Below are positions 7,386-64,000 of a stretch of DNA of 64,000 bases, piece after piece. Origin of the DNA: a virus (taxonomy: Duplodnaviria; Heunggongvirae; Uroviricota; Caudoviricetes); the IMG/VR virus record IMGVR_UViG_2740892441_000001. One strand, 5' to 3'. The notes below the pieces were generated by a model. It saw only the letters and a list, made by a program, of their open reading frames with translations. It was not told where the DNA came from and made no database searches. Made by a program: the position numbers and the translations under genes. Every line of letters begins with the position of its first letter. Position 1 is the first letter of the stretch.

Positions 7386-9419
7386 TTACTTAACCTGGTG
7401 GCCAGGTTTAGCACCAGCATCCGGGCTTAACAGGAAGATGTCTTTCCCGCCGGGGCCAGCAGCCATCACCATGCCTTCGGAGATACCGAAACGCATTTTA
7501 CGCGGAGCCAGGTTAGCCACCATAATGGTGTGACGGCCAATCAGTGCCTGTGGGTCTGGATAAGCGGAACGGATGCCTGAGAAGACATTGCGTTTTTCAC
7601 CGCCGAGATCCAGCGTCAGGCGCAGCAGTTTGTCAGAACCTTCAACAAAGTCTGCGTTTTCGATCAGCGCCACGCGCAGGTCAACTTTGGCAAAGTCGTC
7701 AAAGGTGATGGTTTCCTGAATCGGGTCGTCTGCCAGCGGGCCAGTAACTGGCGCGGCAGTAGCTTTCACTTCTTCTTTAGACGCTTCCACCAATGCTTCC
7801 ACCTGTTTCATGTCGATACGGTTATACAGTGCTTTGAACGGATTCACTTTATGGCCCAGCAGCGGTTGCTGGATACCATCCCAGGTCAGTTCTGTATTCA
7901 GGAATGCTTCTGCACGTTCAGTCAGTTTCGGCAGTACCGGCTTCAGGTACGTCATCAGCACGCGGAACAGGTTAATGCCCATAGAGCAAATCGCCTGCAG
8001 ATCGGCATCGCGTCCTTCCTGCTTCGCCACCACCCACGGAGCCTGTTCATCGACATAGCGGTTAGCCAGGTCAGCCAATGCCATGATTTCACGGATAGCT
8101 TTACCAAATTCGCGGCTTTCCCATGCTTCGCCAATCACTTCAGCGGCATCAGTAAAGGTTTTGTACAGTTGCGAGTCAGCCAGTTCGCTTGCCAGCACGC
8201 CGTCAAAACGCTTGTTGATAAAGCCTGCATTACGGGAGGCCAGGTTAACCACTTTGTTCACGATATCGGCATTCACGCGCTGAACGAAATCCTCCAGGTT
8301 GAGATCGATATCATCAATGCGCGAAGAGAGTTTCGCAGTGTAGTAGTAACGCAGGCTGTCGGCGTCAAAATGATTCATCCAGGTGCTGGCTTTAATAAAG
8401 GTGCCGCGAGACTTGGACATCTTCGCGCCGTTCACCGTCACATAGCCGTGAACAAACAGGTTGGTCGGCTTGCGGAAGTTGCTGCCTTCCAGCATGGCAG
8501 GCCAGAACAGGCTGTGGAAGTAAACGATATCTTTACCGATGAAGTGGTACAGCTCGGCGGTGGAGTCTTTCTTCCAGTATTCATCGAAGCTGGTAGTGTC
8601 GCCGCGCTTGTCGCACAGATTCTTGAAGGAACCCATGTAGCCAATCGGTGCGTCCAGCCAGACGTAGAAATATTTACCCGGCGCGTTCGGAATTTCAAAA
8701 CCGAAGTAAGGTGCGTCGCGGGAGATATCCCACTGTTGCAGACCAGATTCAAACCACTCCTGCATTTTGTTTGCCACCTGCTCCTGCAACGCACCGCTGC
8801 GGGTCCATGCCTGCAACATTTCGCTGAAAGAGGGCAGATCAAAGAAGAAGTGTTCAGAATCACGCATTACCGGCGTAGCGCCAGAAACTACCGATTTCGG
8901 CTCAATCAGTTCAGTCGGGCTGTAGGTCGCGCCGCAAACTTCACAGTTATCGCCGTATTGATCTGGCGCTTTACATTTCGGACAGGTGCCTTTCACAAAA
9001 CGATCCGGCAGGAACATGCCTTTTTCCGGGTCGTACAACTGAGAGATAGTGCGGTTTTTAATAAAACCGTTCTCTTTCAGGCGAGTATAGATAAGCTCAG
9101 ACAGCTGGCGGTTCTCTTCGCTGTGCGTCGAGTGATAGTTGTCATAGCTGATGTTAAAGCCTGCGAAATCAGTCTGGTGTTCCTGGCTCATTTCGCCAAT
9201 CATCTGTTCCGGTGTGATACCAAGCTGCTGTGCTTTCAGCATGATCGGCGTACCGTGGGCATCGTCGGCGCAGATGAAGTTGACCTCGTGGCCGCGCATT
9301 CGCTGGTAACGGACCCAGACATCAGCCTGGATGTGCTCCAGCATATGGCCGAGGTGGATTGAGCCGTTAGCGTACGGCAGCGCGCACGTCACCAGAATTT
9401 TCTTCGCGACTTGGGTCAT
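7386..9419 (-). CDS. metG: methionyl-tRNA synthetase
   Basis: 677 aa translation matches E. coli MetG along its length as recalled from memory ([31 protein letters not shown]...KPGHQVK); start set at the MTQVAKK ATG, upstream extension of the track ORF judged spurious. Confidence 0.95.
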
Positions 9420-51945: not shown

Positions 51946-52241
51946 GTAAAGGTGTCTGGCATCGTCTGGTTCGTTAACGTTTACTAAACCAATGGTGACA
52001 AAAATTAGTTATCTTTGAAAAATAAAGGTTGCATGAAAAGAAGGGGTATGCGTTAATAGCATCGTTGGTTTGCAATACAGACCTTATGTAAGCAGTTTTA
52101 GTAAAGCAGTCTCAGTTCAGTGTTATCTTCTGATTTCCCTTCTTCGTGAGTCTCCTCCTTAAGTGCCTAAGTAAGTCCCAATCTATACAGATCAAATTCT
52201 CGCCGCACTATGTGGCTCACAAAATTAAGAAGGTAATATCT

Positions 52242-52457
52242 ATGTCTAATAAAATGACTGGTTTAGTAAAATGGTTTAACTCTGATAAAGGCTTTGGCTT
52301 TATTTCTCCTGCTGATGGCAGTAAAGATGTTTTTGTACATTTTTCGGCAATTCAGAGTAATAATTTCCGCACTTTGGAAGAAGGCCAGCAGGTCGAATTC
52401 TCTATCGAGAATGGGGCTAAAGGCCCAGCAGCAGCAAATGTCGTTGCTCTAAGTTGA
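52242..52457 (+). CDS. cspA: cold-shock protein, CspA family
   Basis: [38 protein letters not shown]...[10 protein letters not shown] matches CspA-family proteins; long ORF-free leader upstream. Confidence 0.8.
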
Positions 52458-52733
52458 TTCAACGCTGATGATCCTCATTTCTACAATAACGAAGACGGTG
52501 TAAGCCTGAGTGGATAGATTTGTAGGATTGTACAAGTTGAATAAATTAGCATGGTAAGGCCATGCTAATTAAATCGACACAACGGCCAGTTTATTCCATA
52601 AAAGTGAATTGCCCATTGTGGCGAAATGCGGGGTTGCCGCATGAATAGTCAAAGGCAGAAGCTAACTGCCGGCATGGCAAAACAAAGTGCGTAAGAGGAG
52701 TGACTTCCTCAACAAGCGTCATAATTCTTTATA

Positions 52734-60458: not shown

Positions 60459-60845
60459 ATGTCTGATAACAAGATTGAATTTATAGAAAGTCGCTACGCT
60501 GCTTTTATCGCAGGGTTGATTGAATCCTCACCTATGAGCCAGGCCCAGATAGCCAAAACAATTGGGTATAAAAACGCCAACAACCTTTCTTTAATTAAAA
60601 GCGGCAAAATTCCTTTGCCTATCGATAAGGTTCGTCCGCTGGCGCTGGCACTGGGTATTGAGCCAAGTCGTCTTATGATGATGGTGCTGGAAGAACGCCA
60701 ACCCGAACTCGCAGCATTTTTATACAAAGAAGGCACTGCTCCTCTTAACGAGGACGAAAAACAGGTTCTTGCTGCATATAACGAGCGATTCGGTAAAGAG
60801 AAAGGCGCATCACAAAAGGTTGTTGAGGCCATAAAGTCTCTATGA
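60459..60845 (+). CDS. XRE/Cro-CI-type HTH transcriptional regulator
   Basis: SQAQIAKTIGYKNANNLSLIKSGK helix-turn-helix; 128 aa. Confidence 0.65.
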   Translation: MSDNKIEFIESRYAAFIAGLIESSPMSQAQIAKTIGYKNANNLSLIKSGKIPLPIDKVRPLALALGIEPSRLMMMVLEERQPELAAFLYKEGTAPLNEDEKQVLAAYNERFGKEKGASQKVVEAIKSL

Positions 60846-61943
60846 AAAATTTACACGAATAAGCTCTGTTGATAGACGATCTCCCTTAAATTTGTGGTCA
60901 ATTTCGTCTAAATCCGGTTGCTCTACGATTGATGCGATGTACGTCGAGAAACTTTCTAAGGCGTCTCGCATCTCGTCCATATAATCGTGCCGGTCGTAGA
61001 CCCGATCTATCCCCTCAAGACTGTGGTTCATGATTTTACGTGATACCTCCTGGCTTATGCCTAATGCTGGGAAGTAACTACGCGCAGTACGGCGCAAATC
61101 TCGGGGTGTAAATGGCTCAAGCTCCATCAGTTCTGGTCGTTCCAGAATACGACGTAATGCCTGGGCTATTGCTACTTTAGACATAGGAAGGTCTTTCCCG
61201 ATTTTTTTATTCGAAGGCACGAGCCACTGGCTGTCTTTACCGTATTCGAACAACTCTTCAATGCATGTGCGCATTAATGTGCTTAAAGGCAGCGAATGCT
61301 CACGTGCTGACTTGTTTCTCTTGCCTTGATTCCAAACTCCACGCTTAAGATTGAACTCACTTTTTTTAGCCCGCAGTACTTCGTCAGGTCGTCTTGCTGA
61401 TACAAGACACAGCCTGGCCGCCCATTTTGTACCAGCGCACACATTGAAGTAGTCCCATACATTCCAGAACACCCATACCTCTGCGTCGGTCAGCTTCCGC
61501 TCGCGAGGCGTGGGCTTTGCGCCACCGGCAACTTTGTTTAGTGACATATCGTTTAACGGTGACACGTCTATCATCCCCTGGAAGGCGCACCAGCTAAGGA
61601 ACTGCTTCATCAGAGAGAAAACGCGGCGGCCCATAACAATTTTGCCATCCAGTATTAGTGGGTTGACCAGTTGGTTCACCATGAACCTATTAATGTCACT
61701 TACTTTTACATCGGCAATGTGCGGCAAAACATGTATCAAAATACAATGAACAGCGATCTCTGGCCGACGTCTTGTTATCAGCAGAGATAAGCGAGTGAAT
61801 AACATGAATGCGTCCGAGAATCTCATGTCATTGATAACCTGCGAGATCATAACGGCCTGCATTTGAGATGCTCTTTCGAGATACTCAATCGCTTCTTTTG
61901 AGGTGTTCTCCGCTGCGCGTGCTCTGTCAAAGCTATTTTTCAT
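60840..61943 (-). CDS. tyrosine recombinase/integrase
   Basis: C-terminal catalytic region SARRPDEV...HSLPLS...FTPRDLRRTARSYFP...NHS..GIDRVYDRHDY (R..K..H-R-H..Y pattern). Confidence 0.6.
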   Translation of the reverse strand: MKNSFDRARAAENTSKEAIEYLERASQMQAVMISQVINDMRFSDAFMLFTRLSLLITRRRPEIAVHCILIHVLPHIADVKVSDINRFMVNQLVNPLILDGKIVMGRRVFSLMKQFLSWCAFQGMIDVSPLNDMSLNKVAGGAKPTPRERKLTDAEVWVFWNVWDYFNVCAGTKWAARLCLVSARRPDEVLRAKKSEFNLKRGVWNQGKRNKSAREHSLPLSTLMRTCIEELFEYGKDSQWLVPSNKKIGKDLPMSKVAIAQALRRILERPELMELEPFTPRDLRRTARSYFPALGISQEVSRKIMNHSLEGIDRVYDRHDYMDEMRDALESFSTYIASIVEQPDLDEIDHKFKGDRLSTELIRVNFS

Positions 61944-61989: not shown

Positions 61990-62125
61990 TGTTAGGCATA
62001 GATTCTTATAGGATCAAGAGTAAAAGTAACTCATTTTTACTAATGATTCCATACATAGTAGGTATGGAATCATTTAGACGTTGTTTTTTGAATTTTAAGG
62101 GAAATAGGAGTGAGTTTGGTGGGAA

Positions 62126-62150
62126 TAAAAAACGGCTCATGTGAGCCGTT
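62126..62150 (-). terminator. rho-independent terminator after the glutaredoxin gene
   Basis: ACGGCTCA..TGAGCCGT hairpin + TTTTTT on minus strand. Confidence 0.5.
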
Positions 62151-62154
62151 AAAA

Positions 62155-62400
62155 TCAGAGGGTGCTGACGTATGCAGCCAGTTCTGTGTATCCGCCAATC
62201 GGTTGGCCATCGATCAGCACCTGGGGGATAGTCTCTACCGGTTTACCAACAATTTCACTTAGTTTTTTCTTGTCGATACCGGCAGTGGTGATGTCGATGT
62301 ACTCATAATCACCGTAGCCATGTCCCTTTAGTTGCTTCGCCAGCTCGACCGCACGTTTGCAGTATGAGCAGTTATCTCGTCCGTAGATAGTGATCGTCAT
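62155..62400 (-). CDS. glutaredoxin/NrdH-like redoxin
   Basis: 81 aa; CSYC active site near N-terminus; thioredoxin-fold pattern. Confidence 0.7.
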   Translation of the reverse strand: MTITIYGRDNCSYCKRAVELAKQLKGHGYGDYEYIDITTAGIDKKKLSEIVGKPVETIPQVLIDGQPIGGYTELAAYVSTL

Positions 62401-62747
62401 TGCTTTGCCTCATGCCACTTTTGCTTCAGGAGATAGCCTTCCAGGGGCCAGATTTGATCGATAGCATCTTTTCGAGCGTACTCGCGACCAACATCAAAGT
62501 TGAAGATTTCTGGTCTTACGCACGCAGATTTTCCCGTTACGGTATATCCATTTTTGAGAACCATAACGCAGAACGTTAAGAGTTTTAACGACTCATGACC
62601 TTTGTCGATATCTGTTTTTGAATTGTAAACAGAGATGAAGTTATCCCCGTGGCTGGCATCATATGCAGTGAAATAATGTTCACTTTGAATGAGTTGTTCA
62701 ATGTGTTCAGAGGTGACTTTTAGTGGTGTGTTCTCTTTGCTGGTCAT
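62397..62747 (-). CDS. hypothetical protein
   Basis: 116 aa; GGAAGAAATA RBS; overlaps glutaredoxin start by 4 nt. Confidence 0.5.
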   Translation of the reverse strand: MTSKENTPLKVTSEHIEQLIQSEHYFTAYDASHGDNFISVYNSKTDIDKGHESLKLLTFCVMVLKNGYTVTGKSACVRPEIFNFDVGREYARKDAIDQIWPLEGYLLKQKWHEAKQ

Positions 62748-62790
62748 TATTTCTTCCTACAAAGTTCGTAGACTTGACTCTTTCAGTTGC

Positions 62791-62820
62791 AAAAAAGGGG
62801 CCGAAGCCCCTTTGAATTTT
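62791..62820 (-). terminator. rho-independent terminator downstream of the tRNA cluster
   Basis: GGGGCCGAAGCCCC hairpin with TTTTTT on minus strand. Confidence 0.55.
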
Positions 62821-62968
62821 GCGCTGAAAAAAAGTGTTGCTATGATGTTAGCAAGCTATGGTTAAGAACGTCTGCCGTAATTGTCTATCACAGCGTTGAG
62901 CGGTCTGGTTTATGTTAGCGGAGTCTTAATCGAGTTGATTAAAAGGCCAAACCGCTCAACGCTGTGTC

Positions 62969-63055
62969 TGGCGGAGAGTAATGGAATCGAACCATCATCG
63001 CTTGCGCAATGGGACGGTTTTCAAGACCGCTTGAGCACCATGCTCTCTACTCTCC
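62969..63055 (-). tRNA. tRNA-Ser(TGA)
   Basis: Hand-folded: acceptor GGAGAGT/ACTCTCC, anticodon loop CTTGAAA, long variable arm, T-loop TTCGATT, encoded CCA; 87 nt. Confidence 0.7.
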
Positions 63056-63063
63056 AATTGTGT

Positions 63064-63139
63064 TGGTGCCGGTTAACGGATTCGAACCGCTGACATCCTG
63101 CTTACAAGGCAGGTGCTCTACCAACTGAGCTAAACCGGC
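63064..63139 (-). tRNA. tRNA-Thr(TGT)
   Basis: Hand-folded: acceptor GCCGGTT/AACCGGC, D-arm GCTC-AGTTGGTA-GAGC, anticodon loop CTTGTAA, T-loop TTCGAAT, encoded CCA; 76 nt. Confidence 0.8.
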
Positions 63140-63141
63140 AT

Positions 63142-63216
63142 TGGCGATGGTGGGTGGATTCGAACCACCGACCAGTTGGTTAACAGCCAACTGCTCTACC
63201 GCTGAGCTACACCATC
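63142..63216 (-). tRNA. tRNA-Asn(GTT)
   Basis: Hand-folded: acceptor GATGGTG/CACCATC, anticodon loop CTGTTAA, T-arm GGTGG-TTCGAAT-CCACC, encoded CCA; 75 nt. Confidence 0.8.
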
Positions 63217-63978
63217 AATTCGGCACTGCCAGTATTTTTTACTCAACAGTGCCAATCGCGACGGTTTAGTTTCTGCCAGGAAACGCACCGCTACTTGCAC
63301 TTTTCGTTAGTGCCAGACGCTTTCGACTTCGCTCAATAGTAGAAGGCAAAATCTTTAAGTAGATGATGTTTCTGAGGACAGCACCTACTTTGTAATTTAT
63401 ACAATGTGATGTATGGAATCATTTGTTGTGAAAACAGGCACCAATGGCAACAGTGGTTAAACCTACACAACAATCCTGTCTTCACAACGTTGAGGCCACT
63501 ACTCCGATTGAATGTTTGCCCAACATGTTACATATCAACGCTCGCCGGTATCTCTGTGAATAGAACCTTAGAATTGATAAAAATGTAATGGCCTCAACGT
63601 TGTGTGCTGGCTAACCATACCAGCCGGGCTACGTCGCCGCTTTTTAACCCAGTATAAACGACATAATTGAACAAAATGACGTAACAGGATGGGCGGTCAG
63701 TGGCTAAGAATCCGGGAGTCCATATGGGGTTGAAAATATACCAACCGCCCATTCTGTTACTTCATCGAATAGGGCATAGTGGTTTGGCTGTCTATGCCCT
63801 ATCCTGCGTTCTGCAATCACACTCGCTCAGTGTGTCCCATTTCGGTAACGAGGCTGGAAACTGACCTCGCTGGTGTTTGGCTTATTAGGCTACTGCCAGA
63901 TAGACTTCTTCGTTTGCACTTGTATTTAAGTTCAAACAGTCGCGTCTCAACGAAAACAAAGTCATCTTATACACAAAA

Positions 63979-64000
63979 GATAAGTAAGTAAATACTTATC
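63979..64000. promoter_or_regulatory. palindrome GATAAGTA-AGTAAA-TACTTATC (motif B) at window edge
   Basis: 8-bp inverted repeat. Confidence 0.3.

Follow-up and report, generated by a model that had tools for sequence, protein, structure and literature searches.

Structured RNAs other than tRNAs are embedded in a number of tRNA operons and stable-RNA precursors. In bacteriophage T4, rnaC (species 1) and rnaD (species 2) specify same-strand, structured non-tRNA RNAs right behind the last tRNA of the cluster, and species 1 RNA is reportedly cut by RNase III in vitro. In E. coli, the 3′ external transcribed spacer of the glyW-cysT-leuZ transcript (3′ETS-leuZ) occupies the stretch from the last tRNA to an intrinsic terminator; RNase E releases it, and it acts as a sponge for RyhB and RybB. 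RNase III stems of rRNA (16S/23S), the T7 early region and lambda sib bracket mature RNAs or sit in mRNAs. In murine gammaherpesvirus 68 (MHV68), a viral tRNA-like gene and the long hairpins that follow it are made on one transcript, known as tRNA-microRNA-encoded RNAs (TMERs), and are parted by tRNA-end processing. The element described here is a 78-nt hairpin at positions 62889 to 62966, on the minus strand, of a 64,000-nt stretch of DNA (the window) from a Caudoviricetes virus, IMG/VR record IMGVR_UViG_2740892441_000001. It directly follows tRNA-Ser(UGA), the last tRNA of a run of three, is conserved among phage-plasmids of the SSU5/pHCM2 group, and has relatives behind tRNAs of P1-like phage-plasmids. 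It carries no annotation and is best read, from its sequence and surroundings, as a variant within a class already known, the structured RNAs that tRNA operons contain.

The main hairpin begins 2 nt (GA) past the CCA of tRNA-Ser, the 3′ end of which is at 62969, and consists of a 20-bp stem and a 38-nt interior, as seen in the sequence, by folding and as an inverted repeat. Its 5′ arm, CACAGCGUUGAGCGGUUUGG (62966 to 62947), pairs with its 3′ arm, CCAGACCGCUCAACGCUGUG (62908 to 62889), through 20 uninterrupted pairs, of which one is U·G, with no bulges. An earlier note on this DNA, made from the letters alone, had placed here a 12-bp stem enclosing a smaller hairpin (TTAATC..GATTAA). Both are present on the minus strand, the former as GCGTTGAGCGGT and ACCGCTCAACGC, but the true stem extends to 20 bp. 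By folding, the interior carries an 8-bp inner hairpin, UUUUAAUC / GAUUAAGA, with a 5-nt loop (62924 to 62944, in which 62937 to 62944 pair with 62924 to 62931); the 3′ side of the interior is unpaired, and the unpaired interior motif AAGACUCCGC is found at 62918 to 62927. The stable structure that the note had predicted is borne out: the 139-nt interval 62830 to 62968 folds with a minimum free energy of -47.5 kcal/mol against -23.2 +/- 3.3 for its shuffles (z -7.3; none of 200 shuffles was as good), and the 78-nt hairpin alone reaches -40.1 kcal/mol (z -9.9). The fold is thus far beyond chance.

That the structure is not a canonical tRNA, as the note had also held, agrees with the absence of any tRNA prediction over the hairpin by ARAGORN and Rfam. 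Identity as a tRNA, tmRNA or YrlA RNA (RF00005, RF02553) was rejected, for there is no cloverleaf or T-arm mimic, ARAGORN gives three tRNAs only and no Rfam match covers the hairpin; neither program finds a T-loop within 62889 to 62966. A search of Rfam over the main hairpin, at gathering thresholds and at E<=10, gave no family, only low-scoring microRNA-precursor matches that reflect the long hairpin. When the whole window, D6 and one Klebsiella plasmid were searched, only chance microRNA-precursor matches were returned, and the YrlA matches fell on true tRNAs.

Comparison with the systems above places the hairpin among analogues rather than homologues, apart from those in P1-like phage-plasmids. 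T4 rnaD starts 1 nt after tRNA-Arg and rnaC 6 nt after rnaD, much as the main hairpin starts 2 nt after tRNA-Ser. However, rnaC takes on a branched fold that includes a T-arm and is closed by an acceptor-like stem, and the fold of rnaD is weak, whereas the main hairpin has a simple 20-bp stem. A covariance model built from the orthologues of the main hairpin (model R1) has no significant match in the T4 tRNA cluster, its best score there being 10.6 bits, inside a tRNA, and the cluster has no long G+C-containing inverted repeats. The parallel with the T4 small RNAs drawn by the earlier note therefore holds for position and not for descent: the analogy is positional only, and there is no homology. 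The element resembles 3′ETS-leuZ in lying behind the last tRNA and ahead of an intrinsic terminator, in having unpaired stretches that are conserved, and in its U-rich 3′ module, but 3′ETS-leuZ is short and without a 20-bp helix, and neither homology nor a target was found. Like RNase III stems, the element would offer about two turns of near-perfect double-stranded RNA by mature RNA ends in a polycistronic stable-RNA precursor; it differs in being a self-contained hairpin downstream of a tRNA. The TMERs are alike by analogy only, being eukaryotic, transcribed by RNA polymerase III and processed by tRNase Z and Dicer, with no homology. The hairpins in the ban operons of P1, P7 and D6 are true relatives, which share the consensus of the stem base, the stem length and the position behind tRNA-Thr or tRNA-Ser, although their distal stems and interiors differ from those of the main hairpin and one of them encloses a T-arm.

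The orthologues fall into three lineage types, an E. coli type of 78 nt, a Klebsiella type of 79-81 nt and a pHCM2/Enterobacter/Citrobacter type of 83 nt, all of which keep the 20-bp stem. Pairing is found in 99.3% of the cells of the orthologue alignment, compared with at most 47% in slid controls. The sequence of the inner hairpin is unlike between types (those of the Klebsiella and pHCM2 types differ from that of the E. coli type), yet a hairpin always forms, and within the E. coli type the inner loop varies (AACUC, ACCCA, AACCA, AACCU) while the inner stem is kept. AAGACUCCGC stays in all three types while the inner hairpin is swapped, with only one Klebsiella variant deviating. The conservation check proposed in the earlier note thus comes out in favour of a structured element: hundreds of related replicons retain the hairpin, and its stem shows compensatory changes.

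Conservation extends from the tRNA through the last U of the terminator and ends exactly there. The DNA past the terminator differs in almost every lineage and contains AbiGi-family, AbiH-family, phoH, Gp49-family or glutaredoxin genes; the site past 62791, as seen in loci L002-L007, resembles a hotspot for the insertion of cargo or defence genes that is anchored by the tRNA trailer. Where the element is of the pHCM2 type, this hairpin stands directly behind tRNA-Asn, because tRNA-Thr and tRNA-Ser are absent there. In other lineages (L010, L013 and O104:H4 plasmids), the hairpin is kept and everything downstream is replaced. From these two arrangements it follows that the hairpin travels with the tRNA and not with the terminator, and can be separated from the spacer-terminator module.

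Escherichia phage Cyrano shares 99.6% identity with the window, which is a phage-plasmid of the SSU5/pHCM2 group. The trailer was found at 671 places in 669 plasmid records of PLSDB, nearly all of them non-mobilisable IncFIB replicons of about 110 kb, from Klebsiella, Escherichia, Enterobacter, Salmonella, Citrobacter and other genera, and in 67 IMG/VR contigs. It occurs in 250 of 5,426 complete E. coli genomes (4.6%), every copy being plasmid-borne; BLAST of the whole trailer at E<=10 detected no chromosomal copy in these 5,426 genomes. A single copy at a single locus rules out a dispersed repeat. Indeed, a miniature inverted-repeat transposable element (MITE) or a repeat like ERIC or REP was rejected on the grounds that the element occupies one place per replicon and none in chromosomes, and that covariance-model matches are confined to the tRNA region of the window; the flanks of the hairpin, GA and AU, form no target-site duplication of the kind a MITE would leave. 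A search of 596 Gb of genome contigs with the 15-mer ACGGCAGACGTTCTT gave only chance matches in unrelated phyla, the pattern being too short for that volume.

Besides the main hairpin, model R1 matches only two places in the window, both of them hairpins upstream in the same array. The first, at 63483 to 63604 (minus strand; 34.5 bits, E 1e-6; fold z -6.7), has a 20-bp stem and a branched interior of 82 nt, and shares with the main hairpin the stem base CACARCGUUGAG. A 14-bp hairpin at 63425 to 63488 overlaps its 3′ arm by 6 nt. The second and more distant paralogue, at 63676 to 63765 (minus strand; 27.2 bits, E 1e-4; z -5.3), has 22-nt arms, which form 20 standard pairs with one A·G and one A·C mismatch, and a 46-nt interior. 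Both upstream hairpins are conserved in relatives.

Related hairpins also occur behind tRNA-Thr and tRNA-Ser in P1, P7 and D6, where they score 27-31 bits with R1. According to its annotation, the P1 array belongs to the C1-controlled ban operon, downstream of Pban; the same annotation has the plp/upl open reading frames (ORFs) running over the P1 hairpins on the other strand and marks a 'dicF-like region' upstream of the tRNAs. P1-like and SSU5-like phage-plasmids, although otherwise unrelated, have tRNA arrays that are about 92% identical. Across the family, the stem base follows the consensus CAYAAC(A)GNTRAG / CAYAACGNTRAG, while the distal stem and the interior differ by type, and the stems measure about 15-29 bp, mostly 18-23 bp. 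All members lie in tRNA arrays, in fixed orientation to the tRNAs, and start 0-3 nt past a tRNA 3′ end. A hairpin of at least 15 bp is found within -6 to +12 nt of 133 of 168 tRNAs that end a run, counted over 97 loci that are not independent. On the reading favoured below, the main hairpin belongs to a superfamily of ~20-bp hairpins that directly adjoin the 3′ end of whichever tRNA closes a run, in phage-plasmids of both the SSU5-like and the P1-like kind. The searchable literature on pHCM2, SSU5, P1, D6 and small RNAs (sRNAs) from tRNA spacers yielded no description of this hairpin family.

The structure, its conservation, the compensatory changes, the fixed position at tRNA ends and the restriction to these operons are observed here; transcription, cleavage and any role in trans are inferred. 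The reading favoured here, to which we give roughly an even chance, is that the hairpin is an RNA-level element in the trailer, or 3′ external transcribed spacer, of the tRNA operon, probably an RNase III-type processing or stability hairpin that may also be released as a small RNA. RNase P cuts the 5′ end of each tRNA and thereby frees the short spacers between tRNAs. If the operon is transcribed as a single precursor, RNase P cleavage would leave the last tRNA joined to the trailer, and a separate endonucleolytic cut would be needed there. The first 20 bp of the trailer, from 2 nt past the CCA, would provide two turns of near-perfect double-stranded RNA, a helix that would both block 3′ exonucleases and let in an endonuclease specific for double strands, most likely the RNase III of the host. 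Once the stem is cut, tRNA-Ser would come away carrying a short tail, to be trimmed to the CCA by exonucleases, and an apical stem-loop and a terminator-proximal fragment would be freed at the same time. Either of these may persist as a small RNA and might act by base-pairing of the conserved unpaired segments or by binding of a protein at the shared stem base. E. coli RNase III needs roughly two helical turns of substrate; the main hairpin, with 20 consecutive pairs including one U·G, has the ~20 bp of mostly Watson-Crick double-stranded RNA expected of such a substrate, and the stem lengths in the family are consistent with the two-turn requirement.

An alternative that we consider distinctly unlikely is that the inverted repeat works at the DNA level: folded into a cruciform or a hairpin of single-stranded DNA, it would mark the boundaries of tRNA modules open to exchange, or promote recombination; or else its arms are kept perfect by template switching between them. 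The RNA structure would in either case be incidental. The positional coupling to tRNA 3′ ends has been weighed most heavily in preferring the RNA reading: every copy lies within a tRNA array, has the same orientation to the tRNAs and starts 0-3 nt past a tRNA 3′ end, which is hard to explain for a DNA site. Nor are there dispersed copies, or an attB-like chromosomal counterpart in the E. coli genomes searched, and the GTTRRRY/RYYYAAC boxes stand in the opposite order to those of an integron attC. Integron attC itself was rejected: it reads 5′-RYYYAAC (R″) ... GTTRRRY-3′ (R′) with extrahelical bases, whereas the hairpin has reversed boxes (GTTGAGC ... GCTCAAC) on both strands and a stem without bulges. 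A reading as attP was set aside together with the MITE, attC and terminator readings.

Pair changes point in the same direction. Two double-sided changes, U-A to C-G and G-C to A-U, separate the orthologues, and two one-sided changes persist as G·U on the tRNA strand. In the alignment of 15 hairpin types anchored at the stem base, compensated double changes are seen in 10 of the 18 stem pairs, and the family covariation score is 0.525, as against 0.20 in shuffles and at most 0.14 in slid controls. On the tRNA strand, G·U is commoner than A·C, with 30 states to 15 across the family (p 0.018).

Several points, however, weigh against the RNA-level element and in part favour a palindrome in DNA. 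The covariation among orthologues amounts to about two events, because orthologue diversity is low; the pairing in the family alignment arises partly by construction, because the sequences were picked for being hairpins; and the excess of G·U is mostly a matter of sense-strand C-to-T change and could be a mutation bias. A·C-type mismatches are present on the tRNA strand, as C·A in six copies of the main hairpin (2 of 20 distinct variants) and also in the common E. coli form of the 63676 to 63765 hairpin. The stems are near-perfect Watson-Crick over 18-23 bp, beyond the usual need of an RNA structure, and several recombination or mosaic junctions fall exactly at hairpin ends. In one relative, the interior of a hairpin of the 63483 to 63604 type has been inverted through its inverted repeat (L052, IMGVR_UViG_2823367306_000002, 7638 to 7749), being flipped between 18-bp arms with both flanks collinear with the relatives, although such an inversion is seen in just 1 of 73 copies. 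As for processing, we know of no positive sequence consensus for RNase III, and for this reason its cleavage cannot be predicted; the searchable literature holds no data on transcripts, 5′ or 3′ ends or RNases for the element or its relatives. Finally, no consensus sigma-70 promoter is found in the 2.3 kb around the array (window 62000 to 64000; L001 1800 to 4100), compared with about three in shuffles.

A role in DNA might also draw on the whole-unit changes of tRNA content beside the hairpins and on the tyrosine recombinase gene (60840 to 61943) about 950 nt downstream. Among close relatives (loci L001-L104) the array changes by whole tRNAs, its compositions being Asn, Asn-Ser, Asn-Thr-Ser, Asn-Tyr-Thr-Ser and Arg-Thr-Ser-Met. 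As to how the RNA would arise, the array is probably read through from the upstream ligase and regulator genes or transcribed from a non-consensus promoter. The placement of the hairpin between tRNA-Ser and the operon terminator, on which the earlier note had relied, is seen in the sequence, and scans of the stretch from the tRNAs to the main hairpin show neither a sigma-70-like promoter nor a terminator-like site. Co-transcription with the tRNAs, which the note had also supposed, is therefore the simplest reading, though it is an inferred one.

Could the hairpin itself terminate the operon? A strong G+C-containing hairpin close to the operon end would suit a terminator or attenuator, but no U-run follows the stem on either strand (AUAGACAAUUACGG on the minus strand and TCTGGCGGAG on the plus strand), the paralogues sit upstream of and between tRNAs, and a canonical terminator, conserved together with the hairpin, follows 75 nt downstream, so that we regard this as barely credible. 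This strong intrinsic terminator, AAAGGGGC-UUCG-GCCCCUUU followed by a U-run, is found on the minus strand at 62791 to 62813 by sequence, RNAalifold and alignment, and reads AAAGGGGCUUCGGCCCCUUUUUU (62813 to 62791). A simple terminator scan overlooked it because AAA/UUU is absorbed into the stem, and it was read from the sequence and RNAalifold instead. Between the two structures, the 25-nt spacer after the hairpin includes the motif ACGGCAGACGUUCUU (62864 to 62878, minus strand), predicted to be unpaired or to form a small weak stem-loop; in the alignments, it is identical, except for one variant, in nearly all sequences that retain the segment, and without covariation. It is followed by a weak AU-rich hairpin, UUGCUA/UAGCAA, then CAC and U7 (62827 to 62854, minus strand), with a poorly conserved stem, which may be a leaky first terminator or a U-rich site of the Hfq or RNase E type.

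These downstream features bear on a further possibility, that a trans-acting sRNA or sponge is made from the 3′ external transcribed spacer of the tRNA, with AAGACUCCGC and ACGGCAGACGUUCUU pairing with host or phage RNAs and the U-rich stretch and terminator binding Hfq or ProQ. The place between the last tRNA and an intrinsic terminator with its U-run is like that of an sRNA from such a spacer; the two unpaired segments are more conserved than their surroundings in the elements of E. coli, Klebsiella, Salmonella, Enterobacter and Citrobacter; and an A/U-rich stretch stands just ahead of the terminator hairpin. However, complements of the loop motif occur in the window at chance (5 matches with at most 1 mismatch, the motif itself included, against 3.4 expected), and BLAST of the whole trailer against the 5,426 E. 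coli genomes gave no chromosomal match at E<=10, a search that seeds shorter than ~17 nt would escape. Moreover, AAGACUCCGC is altered in one Klebsiella variant, and the hairpin is retained where all downstream sequence has been replaced (L010, L013, O104:H4 plasmids). Taken together, an sRNA or sponge as the main role appears unlikely, to about the same degree as a role in DNA.

The hairpins may, on the other hand, owe their origin to tRNA genes. Nucleotides 3-35 of the E. coli-type hairpin (62932 to 62964) are identical at 26 of 33 positions to the D and anticodon arms of tRNA-Asn (63173 to 63205), with p ~4e-4 per test, and p<=0.002 was reached in 4 of 128 hairpin-tRNA comparisons; after correction for the 128 tests, the best similarity is borderline at ~0.05. 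The D6 and P1 hairpin behind tRNA-Thr (D6 L075 1655 to 1745 and P1 L077 1660 to 1745) encloses a perfect T-arm, GGGUUCGAAUCCC / AGGGUUCGAAUCCCU, and another type has GUAGAGUUCGACUCUCUAC. From such likenesses one could take the hairpins for neutral relics, the palindromised remains of decayed tRNA genes in an array of fast turnover, with no present function. We hold this to be quite improbable, since 20 perfect pairs, compensatory changes and an invariant position across five genera and two unrelated phage-plasmid families are unlike a neutral relic, and the tRNA covariance model has no match over the hairpin. That they are palindromised tRNA relics which gained or kept a role may be the case, as a lead rather than a result.

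Very improbable, in our estimate, is a protein-binding or decoy RNA, for instance an anti-defence RNA or a ligand of a double-stranded-RNA-binding protein, made along with the phage tRNAs. Phage tRNA arrays are often linked to counter-defence, a general association that would suit this role, as would the AbiGi and AbiH defence-type cargo just downstream in relatives. The stem base CAYAACGNTRAG, common to all types in spite of their differing distal stems, could be a recognition site. No partner protein has been identified, however, the sequence of the inner hairpin is not conserved, and Rfam gives no likeness to CRISPR repeats, YrlA or C4 RNAs.

The most far-reaching proposal, which we think unlikely on balance, is that the hairpins make up an undescribed superfamily of tRNA-abutting ~20-bp hairpin RNAs, possibly derived from palindromised tRNA genes, that act as dedicated modules and are common to two unrelated groups of phage-plasmids in enterobacteria, P1-like and SSU5/pHCM2-like. 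These would either serve RNase III-dependent release of phage tRNAs without recourse to RNase E of the host, or give rise to small RNAs, hairpins or duplexes, that have a regulatory or anti-defence activity of their own and are recognised via CAYAACGNTRAG.

SSU5/pHCM2-like and P1-like phage-plasmids are common in clinical Enterobacteriaceae. Annotation of their tRNA arrays is usually limited to the tRNA genes, and in some cases spurious ORFs run across the hairpins. With a conserved family of long hairpins anchored at tRNA 3′ ends, phage biology would gain a new RNA motif. Such a family would offer a simple, testable model for the maturation of phage tRNA precursors, and a second genetically tractable system beside the T4 species 1 and 2 RNAs, the function of which has been unknown for about 50 years. 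If the hairpins are mere processing signals, they would be useful to annotation and unsurprising. We judge the element to be a moderately interesting new RNA motif family.

The last 1.2 kb of the window is a non-coding array on the minus strand, with tRNA-Asn(GUU) at 63142 to 63216 as the first of the run, tRNA-Thr(UGU) at 63064 to 63139 and tRNA-Ser(UGA) at 62969 to 63055 as the last, each found by both ARAGORN and Rfam; ARAGORN finds no tRNA beyond these three in the whole window. tRNA-Ser(UGA) is of odd shape: its acceptor stem has 8 bp, its long D stem closes on a tiny loop, and its variable arm, of 6 bp, is capped by a GCAA loop. The Rfam tRNA-Sec model gives it 42.8 bits, the general tRNA model only 32.7, and in the D6 record tRNAscan-SE assigns no amino acid to its counterpart. 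It may have a Sec-like or 'allo-tRNA'-like fold with a serine anticodon.

Several ORFs have been called or checked in this region. CYRAN_40, a 70-aa ORF in the annotation of phage Cyrano (window 62881 to 63093, plus strand), runs antisense over tRNA-Thr, tRNA-Ser and the hairpin. Its frame is unconserved and would shift because hairpin length (78, 81 and 83 nt) and tRNA content differ between lineages, and the gene call is probably spurious. A 52-aa ORF that overlies the 63676 to 63765 hairpin is likewise broken by indels, and an ORF between tRNA-Ser and the hairpin in a Salmonella plasmid, checked as a homing endonuclease, has no Pfam match. Past the terminator, on the same strand, the window has a Gp49-family gene, a glutaredoxin gene and the tyrosine recombinase gene. 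Far from the array, positions 52064 to 52481 on the plus strand give a full-length match to the cspA thermoregulator (RF01766, 189.7 bits), which suggests a cspA-type cold-shock 5′ untranslated region and gene on the phage-plasmid.

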